Source: a virus (lineage: Duplodnaviria > Heunggongvirae > Uroviricota > Caudoviricetes). From it: DNA of 64,000 bases. Numbering within the stretch: the stretch's first letter is position 1; each line of letters opens with the position of its first letter. The DNA is taken from the IMG/VR virus record IMGVR_UViG_3300044623_001231. One strand, written 5' to 3'. The notes under the pieces were generated by a model. The model did not search any database. It was not told the origin of the DNA and saw only the letters and a program-made list of their open reading frames with translations. Made by a program: the position numbers and the translations under genes. Below are positions 1 to 25,163 of the stretch, piece by piece.

Positions 1-990
1 TTTTGGTGGAGTTCAAGCCCATTTTTGCATGCCGGGGTTCATTTTCGTCTATGGTCAAACGAAATCCAAATCGCTCCCAACGGGATATTAATTTTCAGCA
101 GTATCAGAATAGGTTCTCTCCCACCCACCAGCCCTTAAAGATACGAAGAATTTCTCACATTTCCAAATAAAGTTATCAACAGCCAATTGTGGATAAATAA
201 AGTTATCAACACTCATAAGCCATTGAGGATGAGCCCGTTATGAAATTCTTTGTTCATAACTTTATTTTGCTATGTGAAATATTTTTTGTATCTTTGTACC
301 CTTTTAGCCCCGTTTTTAGCTATCGCCAGGGTTTGTCACCATTGGCTTGGGATTCCGTAATGGGATTGGGATGGGATTGCTCGGAGAAGTGTGGTAAAAC
401 CATAGGGAGAAAAGCTAGGAGCTAAACACATCCCCCCTTAAGCTTCTCAACCCGGTTGATAGGTTGCTTTTCCACATCCTCTTTTCAACAATGTGGTAAG
501 TGGTGGGAATTTGTGGGAGAAAGTGGTAAGGATTCATTGACATTAGGTGTTAATACCTCTTTATATCAAAATCAAGGAGCCCCTTTGGGTGGGGCTTTCG
601 GTGTAGTTAAATTTTCGGGGGTATCACAATAGCGATTTGAGAGTGGTGTAGCTTGAGTGTGTAAGGGTTTCGTTAGCCCTCTATCTCTTCTACTAGTATT
701 TCCTTTATCTTATCTATCTTCTCTCTTACTTCTTCCATTTCTTCTTTTCCTTCTACTATCTCTTCTATTTCCATTAGGGTGAATAGTATCTTTAATAAGA
801 CCTTTTGGTTTTGATTTGTTTTCATCTGAGTGGGGTGTTAGTGAGTTAGTACTTCCCTTATATATAGGGAGTTCTTTTGATTTTTGTTTATTCTCTATAC
901 GTTATGTATCTATACTACTACTATTACTATTCTTAGCTGATTTATTTTTATCATTGGTTTCACAGCTCCAGTTTGGATTGGACATTAAAA

Positions 991-1013
991 AACCCACCTT
1001 TTCGGGGTGGGTT
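991..1013 (-). terminator. rho-independent-type hairpin (AACCCACC / GGTGGGTT) followed by a T-run on the minus strand, downstream of the 1023-1217 ORF
   Basis: perfect 8-bp inverted repeat with a 7-nt loop, seen directly in the sequence. Confidence 0.6.
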
Positions 1014-1022
1014 AGGATTCGT

Positions 1023-1217
1023 TTAAATATCCGTTTCATTCTTATAGTGATTTTCATAATAATCTTCACTCATTAGAATTCCACCTATCATTTGGTTTAT
1101 AACCACAGCTTCATTCCAGCTATTATATTTGTAGACATTTGTATCCTTTACAATTACCCAATTTTTTTGTTGAGTAATATCCCGCCTATCCATCCAATTC
1201 CATTCGTTACTACTCAT
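1023..1217 (-). CDS. hypothetical small protein
   Basis: ORF track; followed by a terminator. Confidence 0.4.
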   Translation of the reverse strand: MSSNEWNWMDRRDITQQKNWVIVKDTNVYKYNSWNEAVVINQMIGGILMSEDYYENHYKNETDI

Positions 1218-1942
1218 TATAATGTTCGATTCATATTTTCAATTAATTCCATAAACCCCCATTGAAATTTCCTTCCAGAGTACATATGAATATAGGAGTT
1301 CATTCTACCTAGTCCAAAATCCTTCCATCCTTCACCATTTGCTAGTAACTTAAGCGATAGCTGCTCCATTATCAATTCCGGCAGTACTAACCGATTCCCA
1401 GTTTCCCTTGATTTTTTGAAATAGAATTCCTTAATAGCATAGAATGTATCCATATACAATTTCATATGCTCAGGGTTCTTAAACGATAGTAACCCTACGT
1501 TATGAGCTCCATCCCATATTGGACTCCAATGTGGAAAAATCTCTTTGATTCCCCATTCATCAAATACTTGAATATTATTTGCATAGTACTTATCCCCAAT
1601 TTCACCATCGTTAAAATCATATAGTACATCGTAACTATCAGGTATGATAAGTGGTTCTGCTAAAAACACATCCCCATCCATATGAATAAAATCACCGGTT
1701 TCTCTTTTCATTGCTTCAAACTTCGGTTCGCACCATAGGTAATTCTCAGTATTCTTTTCCAAAAACTTCACTTCATTTACAAAATTCCCCAATTCGTTAG
1801 CTCCCCTTTCATCCGTATAAAGTGTAATTGGATGAAATCTTCTAGCCATTTTGATTGAACATTGAAACAATTCCAATTGCCCTTTGATATAAGGTTCACC
1901 AAATCCGTTTGGTGTTGTTGTTAAGGTTTGTACTATTCTCAT
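1217..1942 (-). CDS. hypothetical protein (241 aa)
   Basis: long ORF; start overlaps the stop of the upstream small ORF (ATGA). Confidence 0.6.
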   Translation of the reverse strand: MRIVQTLTTTPNGFGEPYIKGQLELFQCSIKMARRFHPITLYTDERGANELGNFVNEVKFLEKNTENYLWCEPKFEAMKRETGDFIHMDGDVFLAEPLIIPDSYDVLYDFNDGEIGDKYYANNIQVFDEWGIKEIFPHWSPIWDGAHNVGLLSFKNPEHMKLYMDTFYAIKEFYFKKSRETGNRLVLPELIMEQLSLKLLANGEGWKDFGLGRMNSYIHMYSGRKFQWGFMELIENMNRTL

Positions 1943-2073
1943 TCTATTGGTTCTTTACATTGTGGACATACAGTTGGTGTTTTTGTATAGAATACGTTAC
2001 CGCATTTCTTACAAACTTTCATTTCATCATCACGCCATTCCAAATCTGGGTATCCTATATCTGAATTATTCAT
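1939..2073 (-). CDS. small zinc-ribbon protein (CxxC ... CxxC), 44 aa (or 27 aa from the internal ATG at 2022)
   Basis: read from the DNA: MNNSDIGYPDLEWRDDEMKVCKKCGNVFYTKTPTVCPQCKEPIE; stop overlaps the next start; below the 60-aa track cutoff. Confidence 0.45.
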   Translation of the reverse strand: MNNSDIGYPDLEWRDDEMKVCKKCGNVFYTKTPTVCPQCKEPIE

Positions 2074-3079
2074 TGTTAATAATATACTTTTTCACAAATT
2101 CAACCCCATTGTTGATTTGTAGTTCAAATTTATCCAATCTTACCTTCATTATATCCTTAGCTTTTGGTATCTCACCTTGCCTCATTTTCAAAGTTGCATC
2201 CTTTACCTTAGATAATCCATCCACATCAATCAGTTTTATATTCGATTGAGTTCCAATCAGCGGGTCCACATTTTGTGGTACTGATAAATCGATTATAACT
2301 TTGGTACCTTCCACATCATTAAAATTTATGATATGATAGTCCGCATTGGTTGCTACTATAATGATATCAGCCAATTTAATATACCTTTGGAGGCTTGAAT
2401 ATCTATCACTTTTTACATCCAATTGTTTTGCTATCTTATCTGATAACGATTCAGTTCGATTCAATAACGTAATTTCGTTGGTATCCAATTCCGTAATGAT
2501 ATTTCTCATTGTGGCTCTACCCATCTTACCAGCACCAATTACCAAAATCGTTTTGTTCTGAATATCGGTTACATTTTCCTTAATATATTCAACAGCTGCG
2601 TTTGATACTGATACTGAACCCTCTGATATTTTAGTTTCTGAACGTATTGTTTTAGCTATCGATTGTGCAAAGTTGGTTATCTTTTCAAAATACCCACCCA
2701 ACTTAGCTGAAATACCTGCCATTCTAAGTGCATCCTTAATCTGACCAGCCACTTCATAATCACCCAATAACTGAGAGTCCATTCCAGATGCAACTTCTAC
2801 TAAATGTTCAAAACATTCCCTATCATTAATGTAATATGCTTCTCTTTTGAATAGTTCCATATCACCATCACCTACCAAAAGTTTCAAAAGTTCATCCTCT
2901 GGTTGGTCAAATGAATAGATTTCAGTTCTATTACAAGTTGAAATGATAAAAAAATGAAATAATCCGCTATTAGAATACCTTTCTAAAATAGCAGATTCAG
3001 TTAGTGCAAATTTACTTCTTACAGATAACTCAGTTTTTTTATAACTAATACCAACACAATTTAGTGGTTTAAATATCAT
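2066..3079 (-). CDS. hemA: glutamyl-tRNA reductase (HemA/GluTR) homolog
   Basis: STCNRTEIY active-site Cys motif; NADPH Rossmann VIGAGKMG; 337 aa. Confidence 0.7.
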   Translation of the reverse strand: MIFKPLNCVGISYKKTELSVRSKFALTESAILERYSNSGLFHFFIISTCNRTEIYSFDQPEDELLKLLVGDGDMELFKREAYYINDRECFEHLVEVASGMDSQLLGDYEVAGQIKDALRMAGISAKLGGYFEKITNFAQSIAKTIRSETKISEGSVSVSNAAVEYIKENVTDIQNKTILVIGAGKMGRATMRNIITELDTNEITLLNRTESLSDKIAKQLDVKSDRYSSLQRYIKLADIIIVATNADYHIINFNDVEGTKVIIDLSVPQNVDPLIGTQSNIKLIDVDGLSKVKDATLKMRQGEIPKAKDIMKVRLDKFELQINNGVEFVKKYIINNE

Positions 3080-3315
3080 TCTTCATTAAGGTATTTGATA
3101 AGATTAATAATTGTAATTGTGAAAAAAACCGGCCATACAATAACCATCAAAGCTCTTTCAAAATTATTAAATTGTAATTCATCATCACCTCCTCTTGATA
3201 GGAGCCAATCATAAAACATAGTAAATCCAAATCCTAAAACTAAATATATTAAAATTTCTTGTCCATATTGTAACATCATAACTAATACTTTTTTGTTAAA
3301 TTTTCCACATCCCAC
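3076..3315 (-). CDS. small membrane protein
   Basis: hydrophobic 79-aa ORF, 4-nt overlap. Confidence 0.45.
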   Translation of the reverse strand: MGCGKFNKKVLVMMLQYGQEILIYLVLGFGFTMFYDWLLSRGGDDELQFNNFERALMVIVWPVFFTITIINLIKYLNEE

Positions 3316-3473
3316 ATTTGTTGTGAGATTTCAATTTTTCTTTCTAATTGTATAATAGCTTCTTTTTGAGCTTGAATATACTCCTGCATTAAATAAATTT
3401 GGTGTTTTAATCTACCATTTTCTTCATCCAATTCCCGTTTATCTTTGAAGTATTTTTTAATTTTTTCTATCAT
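3282..3473 (-). CDS. hypothetical coiled-coil protein
   Basis: ORF track. Confidence 0.35.
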   Translation of the reverse strand: MIEKIKKYFKDKRELDEENGRLKHQIYLMQEYIQAQKEAIIQLERKIEISQQMWDVENLTKKY

Positions 3474-4547
3474 TTATAGTAAGTGAGGTTTGCCTTCAGT
3501 TAATCCGGCGTTAGTTACTTGAACCCATTTTGGGCTGAATTCAGATATTGAATTTGCACCACCATAAGATAGTGCCGATTTTACTCCATCCAATAATCCA
3601 TTTATTACATATTTTACTCCACCTTTATAAGGTATAATAGTTGATTCACCTTCTACGTTTCTAGCTGCCTGTCCATGTGATACCTTAGTTTCTAATGATG
3701 CTGAACCTCTATAACGTTTATACAATCCGTTTCCTTTTTCAATAATTTGACCGGGTGATTCATCAGTTCCAGCAATTAGTGAACCAATCATAACACAATC
3801 TGCTCCAACCGCTAACGCTTTAGCAATATCACCACTTCCTCTAATTCCACCATCAGCCATAATTGGTACATTTGATATCGTAGCGATATCCTCAATACAA
3901 CTTACATTTGGTACACCAAACCCAGTTTTGATTCGAGTAGTACAAAGTGAACCTCCACCAATTCCAACTCTCAATCCATCTGCCCCAGCTGATTCTAATG
4001 CTACAGCTGCCTCAGCAGTTGCGATATTACCCGCAATGATATCCACCTTTTCAAATAGTGGATTTTGTTTACACCATACAATCATATCGATTACATTTTG
4101 GTGATGTCCATGCGCTACATCGATAACCAAAATATTGGCACCAGCTTCTACCAATTTAGTAGCTCTTACCTTATCTTCTCCCTGAACACCAATTGCAGCC
4201 ATAATTGGAATTTGTTTAATTTCAGCATGCCAATCATCATACATAATTCCCCAATCTTCATATGGACCACCAAACCCATCACCATAGATTTTATAGCTTA
4301 ACATTTTAATTTGTTTAGCTTGCTCTTCAATTGACATAAATCGGTGAATACATCCAACACCTCCCATTAGAAACATTTTGAATGCCATATCTAATTCACA
4401 CACCGTATCCATTGGGGATGCTACTAATGGATTCATTAATCCATATCGTCTACTTACCAATGTATTTAGATTAATGTTTTGGCGGGAGTTTACGTTTGAA
4501 TACGCTGGTACCAATTGGATATCATCGTATGTAAGTGATTGTTTCAT
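3474..4547 (-). CDS. guaC: GMP reductase (IMPDH/GMPR family, no CBS insert)
   Basis: GSLCTTRIKTGFGVP catalytic-Cys loop; MADGGIR; 357 aa aligns with GuaC. Confidence 0.8.
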   Translation of the reverse strand: MKQSLTYDDIQLVPAYSNVNSRQNINLNTLVSRRYGLMNPLVASPMDTVCELDMAFKMFLMGGVGCIHRFMSIEEQAKQIKMLSYKIYGDGFGGPYEDWGIMYDDWHAEIKQIPIMAAIGVQGEDKVRATKLVEAGANILVIDVAHGHHQNVIDMIVWCKQNPLFEKVDIIAGNIATAEAAVALESAGADGLRVGIGGGSLCTTRIKTGFGVPNVSCIEDIATISNVPIMADGGIRGSGDIAKALAVGADCVMIGSLIAGTDESPGQIIEKGNGLYKRYRGSASLETKVSHGQAARNVEGESTIIPYKGGVKYVINGLLDGVKSALSYGGANSISEFSPKWVQVTNAGLTEGKPHLL

Positions 4548-4562
4548 GTAACTTTTTGGTTT

Positions 4563-4772
4563 TTATTTTGTTTGATAAACTAAGGTATCCAATTCAGTAA
4601 TAGGAGCGTTCATAAGTTTTCTATAAACTCTACATCCAAATTTCTTACGGGTTGATGCAGATTCACTATCCGCATATCGTTGTGCTATAAATTGAGAATC
4701 ACAAACTGCTACTAAGTAACAACGTCCGTTTAAATCACCACCCTCATATGCTAATATTACAAATGTTTCCAT
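4563..4772 (-). CDS. hypothetical protein
   Basis: ORF with a short-leader promoter (TTCGTATATTTGTATAAATAAAATAAGTT-ATG) directly upstream. Confidence 0.5.
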   Translation of the reverse strand: METFVILAYEGGDLNGRCYLVAVCDSQFIAQRYADSESASTRKKFGCRVYRKLMNAPITELDTLVYQTK

Positions 4773-4814
4773 AACTTATTTTATTTATACAAATATACGA
4801 AAAATTATCGATAT
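4773..4814 (-). promoter_or_regulatory. Bacteroidetes-type -7 element (TATATTTG) with a leader of about 12 nt; short-leader promoter class
   Basis: motif ataacttattttatttatacaaatatacgaa recurs at 29265, 29916 and 32794. Confidence 0.55.
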
Positions 4815-6527
4815 CTACAAGCTTTTCGATAAAATTTCTTCAACAATTTGAATATCTTCGGGATAATCAACTGCATGGGATTGGTTATCTAACATAACCA
4901 TTTTAATTTTATGCCCCATCTCTAAAAATCTAATGATTTCAATATCCTCATCATATTCTAATGGAGTTTTTTTACCAAAACTACTAAATTCTTTAAGGTG
5001 CTCTCTATTAAATGCGTATATACATACCTGCTTTTTGGGATGGTTACCATTACCTGTTTTGGTTCCGGGTATTGGATTCCTAGACATATAGATTAACTCA
5101 TCATTTAAATTGGTAATTACTTTTGGTATTTTCTTATCCTCTACATTTTCATGTTTGTTTAAATAAGACATACAATTTACAATATGGTTTGGATATTTCA
5201 ACTTAGCTTGAATTACCTTATCAATATCAGTTGGGTCCAATAATGGTTCATCACCTTGGATATTTATAATAATATCAGCATCAATTTCCATTGTTGCTTC
5301 AGCAACTCTATCAGTTCCAGTTAAACAAGAATCTGAAGTTAATATTACATTATATCCATAGCTGTTAACTAAATCTACAATTTCTTCATTTTCAGTTGCT
5401 ATATACACATTTTCAATTCCAACTGAATTCTTAGCTATTTCAGCAACCCAAATAATCATTTCTTTATTTTGGATTTTTGCTAATGGTTTTCCTGGGAATC
5501 TTGAAGATTTGTATCTTGCTGGAATAACAACTGCTATTTTTGGTTTTAATGTTTTTTCAATCTTTGAATAATCGTAAGTTTCTGAATTTTCAATATCCAA
5601 TAAAATATTCTCTATTCTATTTGGATTTAAAAATGAAGATTGTAATGTTTGTGGATATAATGGATGAATGTGCTTCATTCCACTTATCATATAATTGTGA
5701 GTAAATCCCCAATTGTGAGTTATATGTAATGGAATCATCCAATCCGTTAAAACTTTATGAAGTGGTGATGAATTATATAATTTGAATTTGTATTGCAAAT
5801 ATGTAACTAATTGTTCGGTCTTTACGTTTCCAACACCCCTACCCATTCCTAATAATGTACCATCCAACCACACTACACCTTCCTCTAAAGCAGATATACA
5901 ATTAGCGAATGCTAATCCAATGTTATCATGTGTATGAATACCAATATCACATCCAAATTCTTTAAAAATTTTAACAATTTCTTTTACTTTACTTGGTTCA
6001 ACATTACCATATGAATCAGCAAAATATAATGCTATTGGATTAACATTTACTAATTTACTAAAATCTCGCATTTCATCATCCGATAACATAGAAATACTCA
6101 TCAAATTTATCATCAAATCATATCCTTTATTTTTTATATGATTTGCAATTCCAATTGAGTGGGTTATTTCAGAATGTTTTATTGCCAATCTACAAATTGA
6201 AAATGGTGAATCGGATTTTTGATGAATAATATTATCAATCAATGCAAAATCAATAGAATCTCCTTTAATAAAATCTTTAGCATCAATCATAAATGCTAAT
6301 TTAGAATTTAGTGGTAATCTATATTCTAATATTTCCCAAATAAATCTATCATTACATTTTCTAAATTGCCCACCTTTTAGTGGTGATTTATAACCAATCT
6401 CAATAACATCCACACCAGACGTATCCAATGAAAATACTAAATCTTTAACCATTTTTGGTTCAAAATTCCAATTGGTATAGTATCCACCATCTCTTAAAGT
6501 ACAATCTAAAATTTTAACCTTTTTCAT
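4815..6527 (-). CDS. bifunctional DRE-TIM (HMGL-like) aldolase / CMP-Kdo-type cytidylyltransferase
   Basis: N-terminal KILDCTLRDGG and GIHTHDN (His-x-His); C-terminal IAVVIPARYKSSRFPGKPL (KdsB/NeuA signature). Confidence 0.7.
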   Translation of the reverse strand: MKKVKILDCTLRDGGYYTNWNFEPKMVKDLVFSLDTSGVDVIEIGYKSPLKGGQFRKCNDRFIWEILEYRLPLNSKLAFMIDAKDFIKGDSIDFALIDNIIHQKSDSPFSICRLAIKHSEITHSIGIANHIKNKGYDLMINLMSISMLSDDEMRDFSKLVNVNPIALYFADSYGNVEPSKVKEIVKIFKEFGCDIGIHTHDNIGLAFANCISALEEGVVWLDGTLLGMGRGVGNVKTEQLVTYLQYKFKLYNSSPLHKVLTDWMIPLHITHNWGFTHNYMISGMKHIHPLYPQTLQSSFLNPNRIENILLDIENSETYDYSKIEKTLKPKIAVVIPARYKSSRFPGKPLAKIQNKEMIIWVAEIAKNSVGIENVYIATENEEIVDLVNSYGYNVILTSDSCLTGTDRVAEATMEIDADIIINIQGDEPLLDPTDIDKVIQAKLKYPNHIVNCMSYLNKHENVEDKKIPKVITNLNDELIYMSRNPIPGTKTGNGNHPKKQVCIYAFNREHLKEFSSFGKKTPLEYDEDIEIIRFLEMGHKIKMVMLDNQSHAVDYPEDIQIVEEILSKSL

Positions 6528-6531
6528 AAAT

Positions 6532-6915
6532 TTATTTTATATACTTTATGTGTTCTAATGTATCTGTCCAATTTTTAAAAGTAAATCCTTTATCATCCAC
6601 ATAAACAAATGCGTTTGGTTTACCCCAAACTACATCCGAAATGTATTGTTTAAAATTATAAGATTCCAACCAATCCCAAATTAACTCAGTTCCTGTTTTA
6701 TCATTAATCAATGGTCTGTTTGGGTTTGATTTGCAACTGAATATTACTATTTTATAATTATCACTTAGATACTTCAACGCAGTTTCAGTTCCTTCCATTG
6801 GTTCACCATATATAGTACCATCAAAAAATCCTTTAGAATCATTATGAATTACTCCATCAAAATCTAATGCAACTACCTTTTTAGATTTTTCCAAAAACTC
6901 AGCAAAATCTCCCAT
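6532..6915 (-). CDS. HAD-superfamily phosphatase (KdsC/GmhB-like)
   Basis: motif I ALDFDGVI; 127 aa. Confidence 0.6.
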   Translation of the reverse strand: MGDFAEFLEKSKKVVALDFDGVIHNDSKGFFDGTIYGEPMEGTETALKYLSDNYKIVIFSCKSNPNRPLINDKTGTELIWDWLESYNFKQYISDVVWGKPNAFVYVDDKGFTFKNWTDTLEHIKYIK

Positions 6916-7509
6916 TTATATTAAAGTTATGTTTGAAATATTTTTAAGTATATTAAACTCATAATTAATATTATGAGCCGGTCCAACTATACCCGCTTTC
7001 TTAGCTTCTGCAACTTCATCATATGTGGGGTCATAATAGTGACCTGTTTTATTTCCATCAAACCCAATCAAATGAACATTTTTATTAAAAAATAAAGATA
7101 AATTTAATGCTAATGAGGTTCCAGATGTTAACCTAGCAGTTGATTCATTCATATATGGATGCGAAACATTTAATAATCGAGTGTTGGGTTGTATATGTAA
7201 AATTTCTCTTTTACTGTTACCACGTATTTCCGATGTAGTAAATAACTGAGTTTTGTTTACATATTTTTCAAAATTAGGTAGCATGTATTTTGTATGTGGT
7301 AATGTAAAATCACTACAATGGAAAGATATTGCTGATACTTTTGTTCCAACATCACCCTCATACCCTTCTATTTGAAAATCATTAAACCTAATTACACATT
7401 CATACGAATCTATAAATTCCCCTTGATTATCCATTTTACCATTACCAACTAATAGTACAGTATCTGGAAAACTTTTAAATAAAGATTGTACCGAATCGTA
7501 TTTTTGCAT
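6916..7509 (-). CDS. putative sialyltransferase-like glycosyltransferase (GT29 L-motif-like)
   Basis: LLVGNGKMDNQGEFIDSYECVIRFND resembles sialyl-motif L CAVVGNSG...DFVLRMN. Confidence 0.45.
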   Translation of the reverse strand: MQKYDSVQSLFKSFPDTVLLVGNGKMDNQGEFIDSYECVIRFNDFQIEGYEGDVGTKVSAISFHCSDFTLPHTKYMLPNFEKYVNKTQLFTTSEIRGNSKREILHIQPNTRLLNVSHPYMNESTARLTSGTSLALNLSLFFNKNVHLIGFDGNKTGHYYDPTYDEVAEAKKAGIVGPAHNINYEFNILKNISNITLI

Positions 7510-7517
7510 ATCCGATA

Positions 7518-7925
7518 TTATTTAAACCATCCGATTTTCTTTCCTTCTTTTTTACGTCTATCGTATTCCTCAACTGAACCCGGATATCTAAATGCCCATA
7601 CCCCAATCAATATGAATGTAAATGCTGCATATCCAACAATTCTAAGTGGAACTGTAAAGTACATTGATATAAGTGAAATACTCATTACAATTACCATCAT
7701 AATTCTACCTTTGTTTGGATACACCCTTTTGGTTTCCCAATTGGTTAGGTATTTTCCAAAGATTTTGTGTTCATGCAACCACTTATCCAATTCAGGAGAT
7801 GATTTTGAGAATGCCCAAGCGGCCAAAAGTGCGAAGAAAGTTGTAGGTACACCCGGAGTAATCACTCCAATGTATGCACAACCTACGAATAAAAGCCCCA
7901 AGGCTCTCCATAACCATTTTTTCAT
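7518..7925 (-). CDS. DUF454/YbaN-family inner-membrane protein
   Basis: MKKWLWRALGLLFVGCAYIGVITPGVPTTFFALLAAWAFSKSSP matches the YbaN N-terminus. Confidence 0.55.
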   Translation of the reverse strand: MKKWLWRALGLLFVGCAYIGVITPGVPTTFFALLAAWAFSKSSPELDKWLHEHKIFGKYLTNWETKRVYPNKGRIMMVIVMSISLISMYFTVPLRIVGYAAFTFILIGVWAFRYPGSVEEYDRRKKEGKKIGWFK

Positions 7926-7930
7926 ATAAA

Positions 7931-8113
7931 TTATCGTTTAAGTATAAGTACTAATGCTAAAATAAATAGAACTATTCCAATTGGTATCCAAAGAGGAGCA
8001 GTTACCCACCACCAAGACCAATCAATATAGTTTGTTAATTTTAAAGTCATAAAGATTAGGAATAATATCATACCCAATCCGATTCCGTTGCTGTTATTAT
8101 TTGAATTTGCCAT
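7931..8113 (-). CDS. small membrane protein (possible holin/spanin-class)
   Basis: 60 aa, two hydrophobic segments, adjacent to the endolysin. Confidence 0.4.
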   Translation of the reverse strand: MANSNNNSNGIGLGMILFLIFMTLKLTNYIDWSWWWVTAPLWIPIGIVLFILALVLILKR

Positions 8114-8114
8114 T

Positions 8115-8681
8115 TTAATTAAAATATTGTTTTAAATTATTAGTTTCGATAGTTTTCTTTAATACTTCAACATATCTTTTATCCGAAGCGTAACTATTAG
8201 AAAGGTATTGGTAGTATTCTGCTTCAGTATTTATTGTTGCCAAATACCTACATTGGTAAAATGCGTAATCATAAACTGATTCTCGCCAACTTTGATAAAA
8301 TGCGTGATTGTTCTGAGTTCCACCAGCAGTAGTTACTCTCTGCTTAGCTTCTTTCATTCCAAATAGGTTATGGTTTTCTTTGAAAATATTACTTTTCCAC
8401 TTACCAGTTTCAATCATAGACTGAGCCATTACAATATGTGGAAACTTAACGTTTAATTCCTTTAAAAGTTCAACCAATTTATCTTCACTAAATTTATTTT
8501 GCTCAGCGGTCATATTCAATACAATCAATTCCTTTTCATAATTTTCCAATGATTGAATTTTAGCATACCTACCAATTGTAAATGAAATAGCTACTAAACT
8601 AATACAAGTTAGTATAACCATTTTAACTGTTTTCAAATCTTTTTTGAATACTAAGTTTGTTCTATCGTACTTATAAATCAT
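8115..8681 (-). CDS. endolysin, glucosaminidase (FlgJ-type) domain with N-terminal signal anchor
   Basis: AQSMIETGKWKS...NLFGMK glucosaminidase motif; N-terminal TM segment. Confidence 0.65.
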   Translation of the reverse strand: MIYKYDRTNLVFKKDLKTVKMVILTCISLVAISFTIGRYAKIQSLENYEKELIVLNMTAEQNKFSEDKLVELLKELNVKFPHIVMAQSMIETGKWKSNIFKENHNLFGMKEAKQRVTTAGGTQNNHAFYQSWRESVYDYAFYQCRYLATINTEAEYYQYLSNSYASDKRYVEVLKKTIETNNLKQYFN

Positions 8682-8684
8682 AAT

Positions 8685-8936
8685 TTATTTTTTTAATTTA
8701 CCATTAATGTACTGAGTTCTTAATGATTTAGCCTCAATGTATTGAGTTCGTAATTCGTTAAGAACTTCAGCTTGAATTTCATCATAATAACCTTTAGTTT
8801 CAATATCGGTTATCATTTCCCTTACCGTTTGAACTGTACTTGTCCAATCTTCCATTTGTTCATCACGCAACCATTCATCCAAATCAAATAAGAATTTAGA
8901 TTGCTTTCTATCTAAAAAAATGGTTTTTTTACTCAT
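8685..8936 (-). CDS. hypothetical protein
   Basis: ORF track. Confidence 0.45.
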   Translation of the reverse strand: MSKKTIFLDRKQSKFLFDLDEWLRDEQMEDWTSTVQTVREMITDIETKGYYDEIQAEVLNELRTQYIEAKSLRTQYINGKLKK

Positions 8937-9034
8937 TAATTTTTAATAATTCACATAACTTATTATAGGTTGCCTGCCCAGATGAACTCAACCTATCATA
9001 ATCCCATCCCAACTCTTCAATTAAATCTTTAATA

Positions 9035-9328
9035 TCAGCTAACATAACATAACTTATTTGCTATTAGTAAAATCGTTTCCTCATCTTCTTTAGTAAGTCT
9101 CCAACTATTACCTAATAGTTTAGATACAGCTTCATCAAATGCATCACCATCGATTGAATTATTTGTTTCCGATAACCCTTTTGGAGTGAACCCCTCACTA
9201 TAAAGTTCATCTACCAACTCCATTGCTTCAGCCAATTTTAATTTCTCAGCTTCTAATTTGTTTTTTTCATTTTCCCAAAACTTTTGTTTTTCTTCTTGGG
9301 ATAGAGTTTTCCATTCTTCTAATTTCAT
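9035..9328 (-). CDS. hypothetical acidic protein
   Basis: ORF track. Confidence 0.45.
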   Translation of the reverse strand: MKLEEWKTLSQEEKQKFWENEKNKLEAEKLKLAEAMELVDELYSEGFTPKGLSETNNSIDGDAFDEAVSKLLGNSWRLTKEDEETILLIANKLCYVS

Positions 9329-9345
9329 AATTTATATTTTAAAGG

Positions 9346-9804
9346 TTACCAACTTGCGTTATATTCAAAATCATCCGCTATCTCATCAGTCAAAATATCT
9401 TCTAAATACACAATAGTATTTAAGATACTCTTAAAGTACCATTCATCATATTCAGTTCCACCAAAGAAAAATCCACTAGATGATGGTAGTAATGTACTAG
9501 CTAAATCATTATCAGCTTCAACTTGTTTACATACATCCAATAACTCTTCTAATTTTTCTCTGCTTACATAAGAAGATTGACACTCATCAATTCCATTCTG
9601 AACATTCTGAACGAACCAATTGTGGATTTGATTTGCCTTTCGCCAATATGCAACCTCTTCAACAATAAACTTAACACGCTCCGGCTTGATTCTTTCATCA
9701 ACTTTACCACCGGTTTTAACTTCCACATCCATACGGTGTTCTGGTTTGTAATAATCACCACTACGAACATAACTCTTTTTGTACAAATAACTGTCTAGTC
9801 CCAT
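9346..9804 (-). CDS. hypothetical protein
   Basis: ORF track. Confidence 0.5.
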   Translation of the reverse strand: MGLDSYLYKKSYVRSGDYYKPEHRMDVEVKTGGKVDERIKPERVKFIVEEVAYWRKANQIHNWFVQNVQNGIDECQSSYVSREKLEELLDVCKQVEADNDLASTLLPSSSGFFFGGTEYDEWYFKSILNTIVYLEDILTDEIADDFEYNASW

Positions 9805-9810
9805 AACTTT

Positions 9811-10008
9811 TTATTTTAATGCGTTTAATAATTTTTTATAATCTATACCAATAACACCCAACAGACCCATAGTTCCGGCCATAACTGCAACTGCCATCTC
9901 ATTTAAAGGTCCTGCAAAGTGGATGTAGTTCTGAATTGTTCCGTTCATTATACCATAGAAGATATAAAATGAACATACTGCGATTAAAATTGCTTGATAA
10001 TTTTTCAT
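9811..10008 (-). CDS. small membrane protein
   Basis: 65 aa hydrophobic; full promoter cassette upstream. Confidence 0.5.
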   Translation of the reverse strand: MKNYQAILIAVCSFYIFYGIMNGTIQNYIHFAGPLNEMAVAVMAGTMGLLGVIGIDYKKLLNALK

Positions 10009-10100
10009 ATTTTAGGGTTTTAATTAATTACTCTCTTAATTACTTGTCTAATATACAACAAATATTCGATATAAACAAGCTTTTTTGTCATTATTTTGTA
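10009..10100 (-). promoter_or_regulatory. full promoter-leader cassette (TTG...TAnnTTTG plus conserved 5'UTR ...TAAGAGATAATTAAACCCTAAAA)
   Basis: one of at least 11 near-identical roughly 90-110-bp cassettes. Confidence 0.6.
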
Positions 10101-10465
10101 ATTAAACTCACTTTAATATCTTCAAGTAAGTCCAATTGGTTACGAAATACATCCTTTTCGAATGCCTCTCTATCAATATCCATAGATTCCTGTACCCTAT
10201 TTATTAGAATAGTACTAAAATTGGATGAAATTGAACGTTCAAATGAGAATTTGTGGTTAGTAATAGCTATGTAAAAATCATTAATAACTATATAGTATTC
10301 CATTCGTCTATTACTAACATAGTACTTACCAACGGTAGGTGCCATCATAAAATCGGTATCTTCTTGCTCACACATTAGGTTTACAATATCCGAAAGTAAT
10401 TGTTCGGTTTCACCTAATTTATAAGGTGGTTTAATAATATTTTTTATTTTGGTTATAATATTCAT
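10091..10465 (-). CDS. hypothetical protein
   Basis: ORF track. Confidence 0.5.
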   Translation of the reverse strand: MNIITKIKNIIKPPYKLGETEQLLSDIVNLMCEQEDTDFMMAPTVGKYYVSNRRMEYYIVINDFYIAITNHKFSFERSISSNFSTILINRVQESMDIDREAFEKDVFRNQLDLLEDIKVSLITK

Positions 10466-10477
10466 AGGGATTTTGGT

Positions 10478-10735
10478 TTAAATGTAACAATTTACATTGG
10501 TTAATGCTAATAATTTAATGACTCTAAGGTTATCCATATCAGCCCTACTAACTGCCTCAACCAATTTGTTATCACAAACTGCTTCAACAAATCCTCCACC
10601 ACTCATAACACCATCTCTATGCATCATAATGGAAACCATTATATCCACATTGTGGTTTGAAACCTCAACTTGCCAGTCTTTAGCGAACTGAATAGCTGCA
10701 TTTTTGTACTTTTCTCTTAATTCTAAATAATCCAT
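10478..10735 (-). CDS. hypothetical protein
   Basis: ORF track; cassette upstream. Confidence 0.5.
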   Translation of the reverse strand: MDYLELREKYKNAAIQFAKDWQVEVSNHNVDIMVSIMMHRDGVMSGGGFVEAVCDNKLVEAVSRADMDNLRVIKLLALTNVNCYI

Positions 10736-10821
10736 TTTTTTACGTTTTAGGGGTTTAATTATTAATTCTCAATCTTTATATTCAAATATACGAAATCTTC
10801 CTGATATAACCAAGCTTTTGG
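10736..10821 (-). promoter_or_regulatory. full promoter-leader cassette
   Basis: ttttaggggtttaatt ... caaatatacgaa ... gatataaccaagctttt. Confidence 0.6.
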
Positions 10822-11613
10822 TTAATTATTTTCATACACACTAAATGGTGAATTCATTGGGATAATGAACTTATTGTTGGAAGTGTCAATTTTGTTTCTA
10901 ACTTTTTTGAATTTCAATCCAACTATAACGTTTTGCTCATCCAAATATCTCATATCATATGCATCACCATCAATTACATCATATCCACTCCATTTAGTTG
11001 GTAATTGTTTACCTTCAAATACCATAGCTACCCTACCTTTACCTTCCCTTAGTAGATTTACACAATCAATCATATTATACCCTGAAAATGAGTAGGTTAA
11101 ATCGTAATTAGAGTACTTTTCTAGCAATCTAAATCGTTTTGATACCTTTGTGTAATCATAGAAAGAAACATCAGGAAACCACTCCAAAATGTTCTTATTA
11201 TCCAATTTAAAGGTAGTTGGGTCTAAATCTGAGGTTCCATTCAATCTAACTGAGAATCGTAATCCACTACGTTCAGCTTTCTCTTTTTCTTTACCAATTT
11301 CATAGATTAACCAACCCATAAAAAATTCCCTGTCCTCAAAGAATAGTTTTGTTTTTTTGATGCGGGCCTGATTAATTTGGTTCTTATGGATATCGATTTT
11401 ATTCCTACCAGACTCATTCAAACAAGCAGCGGTACATTCATCCGTTCTCATTGGACAAACCTCATATCCACTTGACTTAGCGGGTGCTAAGTATATAATG
11501 TAGGTTGATTCATTATACTTTAATCCTTTAGCCATCTTAGAAGATGAATTAACACTACCAAGATAACTTAATCCGGTTAGTTTCTTTGCTTGAGATAAAT
11601 TTTGAAATTTCAT
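10822..11613 (-). CDS. hypothetical protein (263 aa)
   Basis: ORF track. Confidence 0.55.
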   Translation of the reverse strand: MKFQNLSQAKKLTGLSYLGSVNSSSKMAKGLKYNESTYIIYLAPAKSSGYEVCPMRTDECTAACLNESGRNKIDIHKNQINQARIKKTKLFFEDREFFMGWLIYEIGKEKEKAERSGLRFSVRLNGTSDLDPTTFKLDNKNILEWFPDVSFYDYTKVSKRFRLLEKYSNYDLTYSFSGYNMIDCVNLLREGKGRVAMVFEGKQLPTKWSGYDVIDGDAYDMRYLDEQNVIVGLKFKKVRNKIDTSNNKFIIPMNSPFSVYENN

Positions 11614-11641
11614 TTACTATTAATTTTAGGGGTTTAATTGA

Positions 11642-11857
11642 TTATCTATATAATGTTACAATACTACCGAAGTAACTATCAAATACCTCAAGTAGGTTTT
11701 CATAATCACCACTCCTCATTTCAGAACAAATTTCTTCAGAATTCATTCCTAATTGTTTTGCCAGATTTGATGCGGTTCCCAATAAGTAAAAAGCGTTACC
11801 CTGTGGACCGGTTAAATCAATTGTAATTCCTGTTTGTTTTGGTTTTTCTAAAATCAT
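11642..11857 (-). CDS. hypothetical protein
   Basis: ORF track. Confidence 0.4.
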   Translation of the reverse strand: MILEKPKQTGITIDLTGPQGNAFYLLGTASNLAKQLGMNSEEICSEMRSGDYENLLEVFDSYFGSIVTLYR

Positions 11858-11877
11858 AACTTTATTTTTTTTAATTA

Positions 11878-12222
11878 TTAAATACCTTGCTCTCTGCGTA
11901 AATCATACTCTTCCTTTTCAGCTTCCGAATACTCAACAACCTTTAAGTAAGGTTGAAAATCAGTTTCGTAATAACCTCGAAATCCAGCGAAGAATAACAT
12001 CTCATCGATGAACAATTTTCGAACGTAAGTCATATCGGATGAACCAAATCCCTGGTCTTCCGGCCAATCGGAATATTCATTGGCAACTATCTCCAATGAA
12101 TTAAAAACAGCATCAGCATAAGTGAATCCGTTTTTAGAAGGGAATCCTTTTCTGATAACATCGTAACCTTCTACTAATGAAGAGGTTTCGTGAACAAAAG
12201 CTAAATTAAATGGTAAACTCAT
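11878..12222 (-). CDS. hypothetical protein
   Basis: ORF track; cassette upstream. Confidence 0.5.
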   Translation of the reverse strand: MSLPFNLAFVHETSSLVEGYDVIRKGFPSKNGFTYADAVFNSLEIVANEYSDWPEDQGFGSSDMTYVRKLFIDEMLFFAGFRGYYETDFQPYLKVVEYSEAEKEEYDLRREQGI

Positions 12223-12335
12223 ATTTTTAGGGTTTTAAGGTTTTAAGTATCTCTCAATCTTTATACTCAAATATAGGAAATTAATTTGGATTGCACAAGC
12301 CTTTTGCCAATTATTTTCAAAAAAAGTTATTAACA
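12223..12335 (-). promoter_or_regulatory. full promoter-leader cassette
   Basis: includes the upstream element CAAGCCTTTTGCCAATTATTTTCAAAAAAAGTTATTAACA. Confidence 0.6.
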
Positions 12336-14337: not shown

Positions 14338-14482
14338 ACTTTAAAATTTACCCCATTGGGATTTATGTCTATTTTCTTCAGCTATCTTAAAACCCAACCA
14401 AATATCCTTAAAGAATGATTTGATATTATTAATTATTTTGTTCATATTACAAATATACTAATTATTTTTTAATTATCCAAAT

Positions 14483-22455: not shown

Positions 22456-22541
22456 GCGGAAAGAGTAGGATTCGAACCCACGATACCTTTCAGTATGCCG
22501 GTTTTCAAGACCGGTGCAATCGACCAACTCTGCCATCTTTC
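22456..22541 (-). tRNA. tRNA-Ser(TGA), class II
   Basis: hand-folded: anticodon stem CCGGT/ACCGG, loop CTTGAAA, long variable arm, T-loop GGTTCGAATCC. Confidence 0.8.
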
Positions 22542-22548
22542 CTCTTTT

Positions 22549-22620
22549 GTAGTCCCACCGGGAATCGAACCCGACTTTTCAGGATGAAAACCTGATGACC
22601 TAACCGATAGTCGATAGGAC
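22549..22620 (-). tRNA. tRNA-Glu(TTC)
   Basis: anticodon stem TCAGG/CCTGA, loop TTTTCAT; acceptor with 2 GU pairs. Confidence 0.75.
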
Positions 22621-22760
22621 CATATAAATGTGAGCCAAACTTATGTACTTAGTGGGTGTACTCCGTTTATACTACTCTCACATTCAAATCAGTAGTGTGA
22701 TGTTAATGGTTGAAAGATATTTACCTTCCTTTCGGCCTACCATCGTGGCCCATGCGTTTG

Positions 22761-22836
22761 TGGAGCGAATAGCAGGAATCGAACCTGCATCTCCAACTTG
22801 GAAGGATGGAGTAATAAGCCATTATACGATATTCGC
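22761..22836 (-). tRNA. tRNA-Gly(TCC), CCA encoded
   Basis: acceptor GCGAATA/TATTCGC, loop CTTCCAA. Confidence 0.75.
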
Positions 22837-23791
22837 TTATATACGATGAGAATACTCGTTTTAATGAACCAGCTTTATAAGGGTTATTGGTTGCCTTAAT
22901 TTCCACTTCCTTTTGAGAAGTACCAATTCAATGTGGGTAAGTAATGTCCTACCACTCATAAAGTTACAAACTACTCTCTTTGTAGTCCACCTCTTCGAAT
23001 CTGCCGACCCGATTAACACCTCGCGATGCTAGAAGTTTTTCGAAAGAATCACATTTCCCTTGAGAGGATTTGTGGCAGGGAACAGCTCCCTACTATGTAC
23101 ACACCTTTCGTCTGCAACTGGTAACCTCTTTCTCTAGTTTGTTTTTTGATTTTGCGTCAATAGGCAAATTGAGTTTTGGTTTGTAGATAAATTCAAGTAG
23201 TGGATTACCACTAGCTCCGCCCCATTTTGAAGAACGGAATACTATACTACTCGATACGTTATCTCTAACGTCATACTTTAAGATTACTTCAGTACCCACT
23301 CTTTGGTGAGAGGTAGGTAAGGATGATAACAACACCACTTGTACTTCATCATACCTTTCGGTTTTAAGTAACCTTTAATATTGAATCACGCAATGATAAG
23401 GAGAGATTAAGTCCTCACTTCTTGCATTAATTCTATGGGTTATTTTTATTGGTGTTCCCACCTCAACTGAAGTATCTACAATACCCCAGTCATCATTCCA
23501 TTTCGCTACGGAGTTACCCTCACTACATTCAGGAACAATGATATCCCACTTGCCTACTCAAGCTCCATCCGAAGATGAAACCGCAAACCCCTCTAAACCA
23601 AAGAGATTCACTTTATCCTACTTTCGTAGTTTATTTAACGACCATAGGCGGCCGTTATACACTATGTAGAACAAGTCTACTATGTGCAATATTTTCAATA
23701 CTTTCAAAGAACTAATTTTCTTTTTCAAAGATACGAATAATTTTTCAATTATCCTAATCTTTTTTTAATTATTTTTCAATAATTTATTTAG

Positions 23792-23864
23792 TTGCGGGAG
23801 AGGGAATCGAACCCCCGACCTCAAGGTTATGAGCCTTGCGAGCTACCGCTGCTACTATCCCGCT
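23792..23864 (-). tRNA. tRNA-Met(CAT), initiator-like
   Basis: loop CTCATAA; 3' end CCCGCAAC with a 1:72 mismatch and A73, as in bacterial tRNA-fMet. Confidence 0.7.
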
Positions 23865-23966
23865 ATATATGTTTAAGAACTTAATTTTCAACTTCTATGT
23901 ATATAAGTATATACAAATATACCAAAACGTAAAAAAAATCGAAAAATAATTTAATTTTTTTATTGT

Positions 23967-24040
23967 GGACCAGAATGGATTCGAACCATTGACCTACGCA
24001 TTATGAGTGCGGTGCTCTAACCAACTGAGCTACAAGTCCA
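23967..24040 (-). tRNA. tRNA-Met(CAT), elongator-like (or Ile2)
   Basis: GTAGCTCAGTTGGTTAGAGCAC ... CTCATAA; resembles elongator Met. Confidence 0.7.
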
Positions 24041-24174
24041 AAACGAGAGAGGGTTCGGGTCTTTCAAGGTTTCTGATTAAGTGCAATGAGTGACGTCTTT
24101 CTACTATAAACCTTTTTTCGAAAATTAATACACTCTACCTCTTAATTACAGCTTCACTCCCTCTCTATTTTTTA

Positions 24175-24360: not shown

Positions 24361-24418
24361 AACTTTTGTTTTAATTGTTTTAAATTGATAAATAAACATA
24401 GGAACCTACCTATATTTG

Positions 24419-24513: not shown

Positions 24514-24581
24514 ATTTAAATGAACTATACAAATATACGAAATGTTTTTCACAATTCCAAATATTTTTTCATTTATTTTTG

Positions 24582-25149: not shown

Positions 25150-25163
25150 ACTTTTTGTTTTAG

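Follow-up and report, generated by a model that had tools for sequence, protein, structure and literature searches.

Promoters of the Bacteroidota, as in Bacteroides and Flavobacterium, are built from a -33 TTTG and a -7 TAnnTTTG element placed ~19-21 nt apart. Small-terminase pac sites typically contain phased short repeats. Among Bacteroidota jumbo phages, we know of none with a defined replication origin and, to our knowledge, there is little information on the timing of ORFan-array expression in large marine Flavobacteriia phages. The T4 origins oriF and oriG combine a promoter with an AT-rich unwinding element and are primed through an R-loop. T4 oriE has 12-nt iterons beside an early promoter, although the role of the iterons is unproven even there (PMC3016281). 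A family of boxes in phage T5, comprising TTATCCACA, TTATCAACA and TTATTAACA, has been termed DnaA or DnaA* boxes (10.1101/866236).

We have analysed a 1.15-kb control region in the genome of an uncultured marine jumbo phage of ~270 kb. The window (the whole stretch of DNA that was analysed, 64,000 nt) is internal to a contig of 270,754 bp and opens inside the region, not at its border. On the parent contig, the region extends 128 nt past the window start, up to the ATG of the next gene (sequence L108 11806-12070). All genes lie on the minus strand, those on both flanks of the region included. The phage also encodes a GOLLD RNA. Upstream of the region is an operon of auxiliary metabolic genes whose content is variable between relatives, and downstream is an array of small ORFan genes, each with its own repeated promoter cassette. 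Because the upstream gene content differs among relatives, the region constitutes a module boundary, one of several candidate roles listed in a preliminary description made from the sequence; it separates the variable metabolic-gene operon, ended by the terminator T1, from the ORFan array and its promoter cassettes. We lean, on balance, towards the view that the region serves as a transcriptional control hub at this boundary, made up of terminators, a small gene, divergent promoters with their boxes, and a repeat array (Table 1).

Relatives of the region were sought at several levels. A blastn search with positions 1-3000 against 50,697 phage records returned zero matches, and a protein-seeded IMG/VR scan with the adjoining DUF6734 gene gave no result. 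An IMG/VR scan with the 17-mer described below recovered no relatives of the region and brought out the link between this motif and promoters in other phages. One pattern scan of metagenomes yielded five loci, which added little diversity because every one belongs to the L110 lineage. The comparison set consisted of the window (W), L127, L128, L129, L114, L123 and the L110 group, which is a distant lineage. The region is conserved in these related genomes, and this rules out the scenario, raised in the preliminary description, of a mere 3' UTR whose repeats are not conserved. Seven or eight metagenome contigs end within this kilobase, and two contigs (270,754 and 264,953 bp) pass through it uninterrupted.

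Table 1. Features of the control region, in window coordinates
Feature	Position	Strand	Basis or remark
Leader of the predicted P_L transcript, with conserved islands	1-135	-	Alignment; runs 128 nt past the window through a class B cassette
23-nt direct repeat AATTTTCAGCAGTATCAGAATAG, left copy	87-112		Repeat family D3
Predicted promoter P_L	136-181	-	Sequence reading and promoter scan; sense, predicted to feed the next operon
Inter-promoter spacer	182-250		Third box TGTTGATAAC (211-202, minus) and perfect DnaA-box consensus TTATCCACA (196-188, minus)
Predicted promoter P_R	251-296	+	Exact TTTG-N19-TAnnTTTG match; antisense to all genes
Conserved non-coding block	297-577	+	Predicted ~300-nt P_R transcript, putative start ~301-303
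Four tandem 10-bp units: GTGGTAAGTG, GTGGGAATTT, GTGGGAGAAA, GTGGTAAGGA	493-532	+	Read from sequence
T2, predicted terminator of the small gene	578-596	-	Terminator scan
50-codon gene; acidic Glu/Lys/Ile-rich helical peptide (MKTNQNQKVLLKILFTLMEIEEIVEGKEEMEEVREKIDKIKEILVEEIEG)	673-825	-	ORF list and gene call on public contigs
Palindrome CCCTTATATATAGGG	855-869		30-44 nt 5' of the ATG of the small ORF
AT-rich block, conserved	905-985		Aligns across all lineages, including the L110 group
T1, predicted intrinsic terminator	991-1013	-	Terminator scan; at the end of the upstream metabolic-gene operon

The two hairpins and the palindrome near 855 that had been noted earlier were all located. T1 consists of AACCCACCCCGAAAAGGTGGGTT followed by TTTTTT, with an 8-bp stem that includes five GC pairs, and lies 10 nt past the stop codon of a 64-aa gene (1023-1217). 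It is thus a GC-rich hairpin with a T-run just after a stop codon, as in intrinsic terminators, and both parts are kept in W, L127, L128, L129, L114 and L123. The L110 group has neither T1 nor the small ORF, yet keeps the AT-rich block. On the minus strand of this block (~915-938), TAG/TAA triplets run in phase, and a TAR run of such density (at least five of seven codons) is found at only two other sites in the 64 kb, one per strand. The TATATATAA core of the palindrome is conserved, its GGG/CCC arms are missing in L114, and the palindrome may act as promoter or operator of the small ORF. A role as a recurrent, T4-late-like promoter motif was rejected, as the palindrome does not recur in the window.

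The claim that this kilobase holds no plausible ORF was mistaken, because six genomes from three lineages all keep the frame at 673-825 open, at lengths of 50-53 codons. Indels in this frame are whole codons (three codons and one codon), substitutions are conservative, and third codon positions vary most (e.g. 14, 11 and 19 differences at positions 1, 2 and 3). These are the characteristics of a protein-coding gene, here a fast-evolving one that is absent from the L110 lineage; comparison of its product with protein families gave no significant match. The polypyrimidine tract reported at 660-790 is the antisense strand of this gene. Among 130-nt stretches it is indeed the richest in pyrimidines that the window contains (maximum 0.77), yet at 74.8% it is not nearly all pyrimidine, and the correction reveals a genuine tiny gene that was concealed in it. 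The minus-strand tail of T2 reads GGGGCTTTTTTATT in L127, L128, L129 and L123, and its T-run is degenerate in W. On the plus strand the tail is TTT only, and the hairpin is not conserved in L114 or L110. T2 may be bidirectional and also end the predicted P_R transcript. The right copy of the 23-nt direct repeat (610-632) is 83% identical to the left, the pair brackets the promoter and repeat core, and a TGATAC...AAATTAA core is retained by both copies in most lineages.

P_L and P_R are predicted to be promoters of the Bacteroidota type, as suggested by their match to the consensus and by the conservation of both elements of each in all lineages. P_R comprises the box TGTTCATAAC (251-260), a -33 TTTG (266-269), a 19-nt spacer with TATGTGAA, and the -7 element TATCTTTG (289-296). 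The pattern TTTG-N19-TAnnTTTG has 11 matches in the window against 3.1 expected. Eight are sense-strand class A promoters, whose features P_R shares, and the two plus-strand matches other than P_R fall within coding sequence. Across the 64 kb, P_R was the only antisense promoter found to be conserved, and no block is better conserved when W is compared with the distant L110 lineage, which is at 65% identity (80% for the P_R block, over 81 nt). P_L comprises the box TGTTGATAAC (181-172), a -33 TTTG (167-164), a 20-nt spacer with AATGTGAG, and the -7 element TATCTTTA (143-136), so that it reads TTTG-N20-TATCTTTA, one base off consensus. It forms the left arm of a 52-nt inverted repeat and is conserved in relatives, the box lying 10 nt further upstream in L114, L123 and L110. 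The class A spacer motif (A/T)TGTGA is common to both promoters. The genome contains more than 10 copies of the class B promoter cassette. Pairs of divergent promoters whose boxes stand back to back also occur in other large phages; a second divergent pair in this window, at 60.2 kb, lies within small ORFs and is probably due to chance.

The sequence AAATAAAGTTATCAACA had been described as duplicated at 165-211. Both copies are present (165-181 and 195-211), and a third, inverted copy with one mismatch (251-267) had been overlooked. The copies sit in the 52-nt inverted repeat (arms 137-188 and 244-295), with the outer two just 5' of the -33 elements of both divergent promoters. At three or fewer mismatches, this 17-mer has 8 matches in the window versus 1.3 expected, a count reached in 0 of 100 shuffles. 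In register with -33/-7 promoters, it is also found on ~16-20 unrelated IMG/VR phage contigs and in some Bacteroidota genomes. The shorter sequence TGTTRATAAC is near-palindromic, resembles a DnaA box, and occurs six times against 0.71 expected (0 of 100 shuffles get to six). Two of these sites are in the region, single sites lie upstream of class B promoters at 12.3 and 58.0 kb, and an inverted pair lies upstream of a class B promoter at 34.4 kb. The 17-mers, called iteron-like in the preliminary description, are instead promoter-associated boxes that recur at other promoters.

Four boxes are clustered in 150 nt, an arrangement that occurs nowhere else in the 64 kb. Only TTATCCACA (188-196) and the non-conserved TTTTCCACA (468-476) fit the DnaA consensus (TTWTNCACA); the remaining boxes have the form TTATSAACA, and most break the consensus at position 6. 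The perfect box is replaced by two copies of TTATGAACA in L114 and L123 and by TTATCAACA in L110. Throughout the window, consensus DnaA boxes number 14 versus 13.2 expected, which is chance level, and the several conserved consensus boxes of an oriC were not found in the region. The IHF consensus WATCAANNNNTTR was compared by eye with the TATCAA sites and did not fit.

In the central block, conserved islands (GCCAGGGTTTGTCACC, ACCATAGGGAGAAAAGCTAGGAG, CCCCCCTTAAGC, GGTTGATAGG, the GTGG array and TATATCAAAAT) are separated by hypervariable patches. With an nhmmer profile of the whole region, the block was found just once in the available 84 kb, and the sole recurring elements were the inverted repeat and the class B cassette. 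The repeat units start at 493, 503, 513 and 523, with GTGGTAAG at the first and last and GTGGGA at the two between; the reported duplicate and its GTGGGA neighbours were therefore present, at a spacing of 30 nt (493, 523) rather than 35. The 10-nt periodicity is exact, and the array is unique in the 64 kb and forms the densest GTGGKRA cluster in the window. An array of four 10-nt units is also present in L114, L123, L127, L128 and L110, where the order of the units differs. TTGATA is the top-enriched hexamer of the region in all four lineages (21 versus 5.8 expected). A plus-strand frame is common to W and L114, and is a 59-codon ORF in the latter. Coding capacity was nonetheless rejected because this frame is broken by an in-frame TAA in W, L127 and L128, by other stops in L123, and by a 10-nt indel in L110. 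The idea of a G-quadruplex or R-loop at GGGATT...GGG (349-378) was also rejected; the G-tracts are confined to particular lineages, and over the whole transcript the GC skew is just +0.13.

As a control hub, the region would be ordered along the gene strand from T1 (1013-991) through the 50-codon gene (825-673), T2 (596-578) and ~280 nt of conserved non-coding sequence to the promoters (136-296). T1 would close the auxiliary metabolic operon, the small gene would end at its own terminator, and T1 and T2 together would insulate the neighbouring units. P_L would fire onward through its leader and the class B promoter into the array of small ORFan genes, and P_R would fire backwards on the plus strand, across the conserved block and toward T2. 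A dimeric DNA-binding regulator, either phage-encoded or a host protein (host DnaA is a candidate), may recognise TGTTRATAAC and set the firing of P_L and P_R; control of the pair is suggested because the boxes adjoin both -33 elements and lie between them. Outside the region, several class B promoters of the genome also have the box of this putative regulator on their 5' side. The 4 x 10-bp GTGG array and the TTGATA motifs could be further protein-binding sites on one helix face. Ordinary parts account for most features, the repeat block being the exception. The ~280 nt of island conservation and the exact array 3' of the antisense promoter are not accounted for by a promoter-terminator model. 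Contig ends in this kilobase are not predicted by a purely regulatory reading either, and repeats and microdiversity could cause them.

A replication origin, in which the box cluster recruits DnaA or a phage initiator, the GTGG array serves as iterons and P_R opens or primes the DNA, is an unlikely alternative. It would be compatible with P_L and P_R being real promoters, with priming as at the promoter-dependent origins of T4. The four clustered DnaA-like boxes, one of them perfect, form a cluster unique in the window, and TTATCAACA is found amid canonical DnaA boxes directly 5' of dnaA-dnaN in some bacterial genomes. An origin-type role retains some probability because the box family is that of the T5 DnaA/DnaA* boxes and accompanies true DnaA boxes beside dnaA in some bacteria. 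Evenly spaced short direct repeats are found in every lineage, like the 12-nt iterons beside an early promoter at T4 oriE (PMC3016281), and P_R, the only conserved antisense promoter, aims into them. In addition, the conserved block resembles DNA-level sites more than RNA or protein, the phage has a T4-type ligase, and two independent contigs of ~265-270 kb carry the region close to their middle. Contig midpoints are arbitrary, however, because a third contig of the same phage begins here. GC skew, which the preliminary description had suggested checking on the full genome, and AT skew do not change across the region (0.247 before, 0.232 after); the genes on either side are co-oriented. The lowest-GC stretch (17.5% over 40 nt, 256-295) adjoins the boxes but is the P_R promoter itself and ranks only at the 5th percentile of this AT-rich window, as does the lowest-GC 60-nt segment; no AT-rich unwinding element stands out. 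The perfect DnaA box lacks conservation, consensus boxes stand at chance level, and the boxes of the region are found again at ordinary promoters. Iteron origins have at least three repeats of ~17-22 bp and an adjacent initiator, whereas the repeats here are four units of 10 bp and no Rep-like gene is adjacent. Searches of the flanking ORFs against Pfam and PHROGs recognised no Rep or initiator domain, although an ORFan initiator would escape them. An R-loop origin of the oriF/oriG type also fits poorly: the promoters are present, but the DNA 3' of P_R (297-575) is 44% GC and that 3' of P_L (1-136) is 46%, in a genome of 33%. With no skew change, no exceptional AT-rich unwinding element and no enrichment of DnaA boxes, the replication origin proposed in the preliminary description was not substantiated. 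The more specific proposal that the core (136-600) is the origin of a Bacteroidota-infecting jumbo-phage lineage, a hybrid of the T4 oriE and oriC designs, appears improbable to us. We know of no such hybrid origin described in any Bacteroidota phage and, if the core is an origin, it would be the first for a Bacteroidota jumbo phage, because none is known to us to have been defined.

We consider it rather improbable that the plus strand at 301-600 is a ~300-nt non-coding RNA gene transcribed from P_R, acting through its primary sequence, for instance as a guide or a sponge that carries four GUGG repeats, and not through a conserved fold. A strong conserved promoter does face a hairpin 280 nt downstream, islands of primary sequence are conserved, and class A promoters serve other RNA genes in this phage, which has a GOLLD RNA and a class A promoter 25 nt upstream of its tmRNA. 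Against this, RNAalifold on ~4 independent lineages gave no conserved fold, with -5.8 kcal/mol on the plus strand (375 columns; z = -2.3 against column shuffles) and -0.6 kcal/mol on the minus strand, and the single-sequence MFE z-score of the block was +0.39. The power of this test is limited because there are only ~4 independent lineages, among which neither a covarying fold nor a curated family was found. Rfam searches of five genomes at relaxed E-values, covering four lineages, gave only one match at E = 2.6 and a miRNA-hairpin match that is spurious because of the inverted repeat; a tRNA and tmRNA scan found none within the region. Furthermore, the hypervariable patches are without compensatory changes, the hairpin has only a TTT tail on the plus-strand side and is absent in L114 and L110, and no complementary second site was found in the 84 kb available. 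Highly improbable, in our assessment, is a packaging (pac), terminal or injection-stop site similar to the untranslated T5 iss region. The region has the box vocabulary of T5 iss (TTATCCACA, two copies of TTATCAACA, and TTATTAACA), which in T5 is likewise placed in inverted repeats of an extended untranslated stretch (10.1101/866236), and such a site would be consistent with phased short repeats of the kind seen at small-terminase pac sites and with the many contigs that end here. Two contigs of 265-271 kb cross the region, however, and the contig ends can also be explained by the inverted repeats together with strain mosaicism, which is visible as hypervariable patches. No terminase gene was found nearby, the box pairs are 5-6 bp apart versus 3 bp in T5, and the ligase is T4-type and not T5-like.

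Returning to the control hub, the compact element that remains consists of the divergent promoters and a recurrent palindromic box, with the array 3' of the sole antisense promoter found. Should host DnaA or a phage regulator bind the boxes, these would provide a handle on the timing of ORFan arrays in large marine Flavobacteriia phages. The two promoter classes and the TGTTRATAAC box should also aid in annotating related metagenomic phage genomes.

Compared with bacterial oriC and DnaA-regulated promoters, the region likewise clusters one perfect box and several near-consensus boxes, but the perfect box differs between lineages, consensus boxes are at chance frequency, there is no adjacent DnaA-trio, and no unwinding element stands out. 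In a Clostridia MAG and in Tenericutes-like genomes, an 18-mer adjoins canonical boxes 5' of dnaA; in a Muribaculaceae genome, it lies in tandem upstream of a gene whose product, judging from its N-terminus, may be a ribonucleotide reductase. T5 iss is similar as a large, conserved untranslated region with repeats, inverted repeats, palindromes and the same boxes within inverted repeats. The spacing of the box pairs differs, the boxes here are tied to promoters, and T5 iss lies in a terminal repeat, to which the present region could not be assigned; the phage lineage and host phylum are unrelated. The likeness to T4 oriE lies in a promoter accompanied by short direct repeats at even spacing, which syntenic regions of relatives also keep, and by a small ORF beside them, and at least one T4-type replication enzyme is encoded by the phage. 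The unit here is 10 nt, repeated four times, as opposed to the 12-nt iterons of T4, with no sequence similarity, and unlike at oriF and oriG neither promoter has an AT-rich unwinding element downstream. Unlike in the lambda PR/PRM-OR arrangement, the pair has no repressor or cro-type gene at its flanks, one of the two promoters has no ORF to drive, and the boxes are also present as single copies 5' of further promoters. The pair nonetheless resembles that arrangement and the sigma-A promoters of the Bacteroidota, here placed back to back with three to four copies of one near-palindromic box between and beside them, and a Flavobacterium phage promoter, CTTTATTTG-N20-TAcaTTTG, has the same shape.

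We incline, with moderate confidence, to regard the intergenic region at the start of the window as a hub of transcriptional control that sits on a module boundary. The features flagged in a preliminary description of this sequence are mostly ordinary; the part meriting experiment is a 4 x 10-bp array located behind an antisense promoter. The gap extends from position 1022 to 128 nt past the window start, and position 1 is not its beginning. Relatives were collected via homologues of the neighboring DUF6734 protein, and their contigs share the neighborhood. Identity of this protein is 96% in contigs L127, L128 and L129, 83% in L114 and L115, 79% in L123, and 65% in L110, L111 and others, one of which is a 264,953-bp contig. 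A gap of 0.9-1.2 kb is retained at the same place in all of these relatives. Identity between the window and L114 is 69% across the entire gap, versus 91% for the next gene, and only islands are shared with the distant L110 lineage, the best being 80% identical over 81 nt. Because the gap and its islands are kept in relatives, the scenario of a mere 3' UTR lacking repeat conservation, named in the preliminary description, is excluded.

Over window positions 1-11,942, the reverse complement is nearly identical to two public contigs, with nine mismatches, all distant from the region. The matched stretch is internal to L108, a 270,754-bp JGI metagenome contig; L109, which derives from the same phage and measures 268,043 bp, ends 332 nt past window position 1. 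All substantial ORFs are carried by the minus strand in the 64 kb and in 8.8 kb past the window start. Encoded in the window are a T4-type DNA ligase (nearest to those of an uncultured 595-kb phage, T4-like Cr30 and phiM12), GroEL, thymidylate synthase and RNA ligase. A GOLLD RNA fills part of the largest ORF-free gap in the window (22837-23790). Promoters of the Bacteroidota pattern, TTTG-N19-21-TAnnTTTG, gave 11 matches in a window scan versus 3.1 expected. Based on gene content and this promoter pattern, the host of this large marine phage is probably a member of the Flavobacteriia, and the phage may be one of the recently described "moraphages" (PMC12619734).

The 17-mer AAATAAAGTTATCAACA is present at 165-181 and 195-211, as previously listed, and a third, inverted copy is found at 251-267. 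The three copies fall within an inverted repeat of 52 nt (137-188 / 244-295), which is predicted to be a pair of divergent promoters, P_R and P_L. An extended -33 element (TTTGG/TTTGC) and a spacer motif, (A/T)TGTGA, are common to P_R, P_L and eight minus-strand promoters of class A, one of two conserved, predicted promoter families of this phage; one class A promoter is situated ~25 nt upstream of the tmRNA. The cassette of the other family, class B, is repeated over 10 times across the available 84 kb. P_L is directed at the next operon. P_R is directed oppositely; no other antisense promoter match in the 64 kb is both conserved and intergenic, and this one is the most conserved island of the region. 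The stretch separating the two promoters holds a third TGTTGATAAC box together with a perfect match to the DnaA-box consensus, TTATCCACA; nowhere else in the window are four boxes grouped within 150 nt.

Predicted features of the region and its genomic context
Feature	Position	Strand	Sequence or remark
P_R promoter	251-296	+	TGTTCATAAC-TTTAT-TTTG-N19-TATCTTTG
P_L promoter	181-136	-	TGTTGATAAC-TTTA-TTTG-N20-TATCTTTA
Class A promoter family	e.g. 14450-14481, 29933-29964	-	TTTGGAWATGTGAA..GTATATTTG
Class B cassette (~75 nt)	e.g. 12219-12335, 34277-34390, 57904-58014	-	TGTTRATAACTTTTTTGAAAATAAT..AAAAGCTTGT-N21-TATATTTG-AGTATAAGATTGAGAGA
DUF6734 protein	1217-1942	-	
Glutamyl-tRNA reductase-like protein	2066-3079	-	
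GMP reductase/IMPDH-family protein	3474-4547	-	
HMGL-like/CMP-sugar cytidylyltransferase fusion	4815-6527	-	
Sialyltransferase-family protein	6916-7509	-	
tRNA cluster	22456-28616	-	25 tRNA genes + tmRNA
GOLLD RNA	22843-23254	-	Rfam RF02032, 257 bits, E = 5e-72; within tRNA cluster
tmRNA	26038-26405	-	tag AVELSTMTFEDAMSFVGADYAVAA

Downstream of P_R, positions 297-577 consist of conserved islands between hypervariable, mosaic patches. The most striking island is the GTGG array: the GTGGTAAG copies (493, 523) and GTGGGA repeats (503, 513) noted earlier are present and together make four units with an exact period of 10 nt, a spacing retained in every lineage while unit order differs. Among the hexamers of the region, TTGATA/TATCAA ranks first in enrichment in each of the four lineages (21 versus 5.8 expected). 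A coding function for the block was rejected: the frame meets a TAA in the window, L127 and L128 and different stops in L123, and L110 carries an indel of 10 nt. In L114, a plus-strand ORF of 59 codons (window counterpart 359-632) is open, and its frame and many residues match the window (..TIGRKAR..THPPLSF..SFQQCGK.W.FVGESGK), the TAA interrupting this frame in the window, L127 and L128. Frame conservation through low divergence is the most likely explanation, and stop-codon readthrough is a possible alternative. As a structured RNA, the block matched no Rfam family in five genomes, yielded RNAalifold energies of -5.8 kcal/mol (plus strand) and -0.6 kcal/mol (minus strand) over 375 columns and an MFE z-score of +0.39, and had no compensatory changes in its variable patches. 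A whole-region profile found no second copy of the block in 84 kb; recurrence is confined to the inverted repeat and the class B cassette. This pattern of conservation best fits predicted protein-binding sites at the DNA level.

A small gene and two predicted terminators also lie in the region. The tract at 660-790 is the most extreme 130-nt pyrimidine stretch in the window, at 75% rather than nearly all pyrimidine, and the statement that no plausible ORF exists was wrong, as the tract is the antisense of a 50-codon minus-strand ORF (825-673). Rich in GAA, GAG, AAG and ATA codons and called as a gene on public contigs, this frame is open over 50-53 codons in six genomes of three lineages, with indels of one and three whole codons, conservative exchanges (I/V/L, D/E) and most changes at third codon positions. 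It has no match in protein-family searches and is absent from the L110 lineage. The hairpins previously described at 578-596 and 991-1013 and the palindrome at 855-869 all exist. The former hairpin sits after the small ORF and is its predicted terminator, because GGGGCTTTTTTATT comes next on the minus strand in relatives; the latter, conserved and reading AACCCACCCCGAAAAGGTGGGTT+TTTTTT on the minus strand 10 nt past a stop codon, is the predicted terminator of the upstream operon. The palindrome, 30-44 nt upstream of the small ORF's ATG, is conserved only in its TATATATAA core and does not recur in the window. On the minus strand, TAG/TAA triplets follow one another in phase at 915-938 (TAGTAATAGTAGTAG), in a block that even the most distant lineage keeps; the run is DnaA-trio-like in form, yet ~700 nt from the box cluster.

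The proposal of a module boundary held up, as gene content varies between relatives upstream, and downstream an array of ORFan genes is conserved along with its repeated promoter cassettes. The upstream operon (1217-7509, minus strand) contains auxiliary metabolic genes unusual for a phage, and its content differs between relatives. The locus also tolerates gene insertion, since L123 carries a 540-nt insertion (4121-4663) between the central boxes and P_L, holding an antisense 120-aa ORF that has no Pfam match.

Control-hub, origin, non-coding RNA and terminus readings are not fully separate, since origins of the T4 type are themselves promoters. We consider a replication origin unlikely. The cluster of boxes, a promoter pointed at repeats, and the phased repeats themselves, which resemble the T4 oriE iterons beside an early promoter, would agree with one, although the function of those iterons is unproven even in T4 (PMC3016281). 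However, GC skew, put forward earlier as a check, is unchanged across the region (0.247 before versus 0.232 after), gene orientation is the same on both sides, GC content is 44-46% downstream of both promoters with no outstanding AT-rich unwinding element, and the repeat unit is shorter than classical iterons. Family searches of the flanking ORFs also recognized no initiator-like gene of the repeat-binding kind that had been suggested. A primary-sequence non-coding RNA transcribed from P_R seems quite unlikely. A packaging, terminal or injection-stop site is very unlikely: this kilobase contains a start or end of seven or eight independent metagenome contigs (at 1-1000 or homologous positions in L109, L111, L118, L120, L121, L122 and L129), but two contigs of 265-271 kb continue through it, and inverted repeats together with strain mosaicism can account for assembly breaks. 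The contig ends could possibly stem from these or from a physical property of the DNA.

With respect to the boxes, the near-palindrome TGTTRATAAC is enriched (6 copies versus 0.71 expected; 0/100 shuffles reach 6), and its copies outside the region precede the -7 element of class B cassettes by ~60 nt. One class B promoter is preceded by a second inverted pair of the box at 34,381-34,406, GTTATCAACA-TTTATT-TGTTAATAAC, an arrangement shared by several unrelated IMG/VR phages. In ~16-20 distinct IMG/VR phage contigs, the 17-mer keeps register with a -33/-7 promoter, and other large phages have it as back-to-back pairs between divergent genes. Consensus DnaA boxes are not enriched in the window (14 versus 13.2 expected), and the perfect box is not kept in relatives. 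Because of these links to promoters here and in other phages, we read the box as a putative operator of a dimeric, transcription-linked regulator. The same 17-mer is found in non-coding regions of further large phage contigs of up to 272 kb (L019, 2822-3233; L051, 6076-6448; also L003, L029, L024, L020 and L090); these regions also hold long repeats rich in GGGG/CCCC as well as recurring TGACA motifs, and may represent a comparable control or origin-like region in a different lineage. DnaA itself is a possible ligand. In bacterial genomes, the 18-mer TGTTGATAACTTTATTTG is sometimes found among canonical DnaA boxes immediately upstream of dnaA-dnaN. In the T5 iss region, which is large and untranslated, TTATCAACA and TTATTAACA have been termed variant DnaA boxes and occur beside TTATCCACA within inverted repeats (10.1101/866236).
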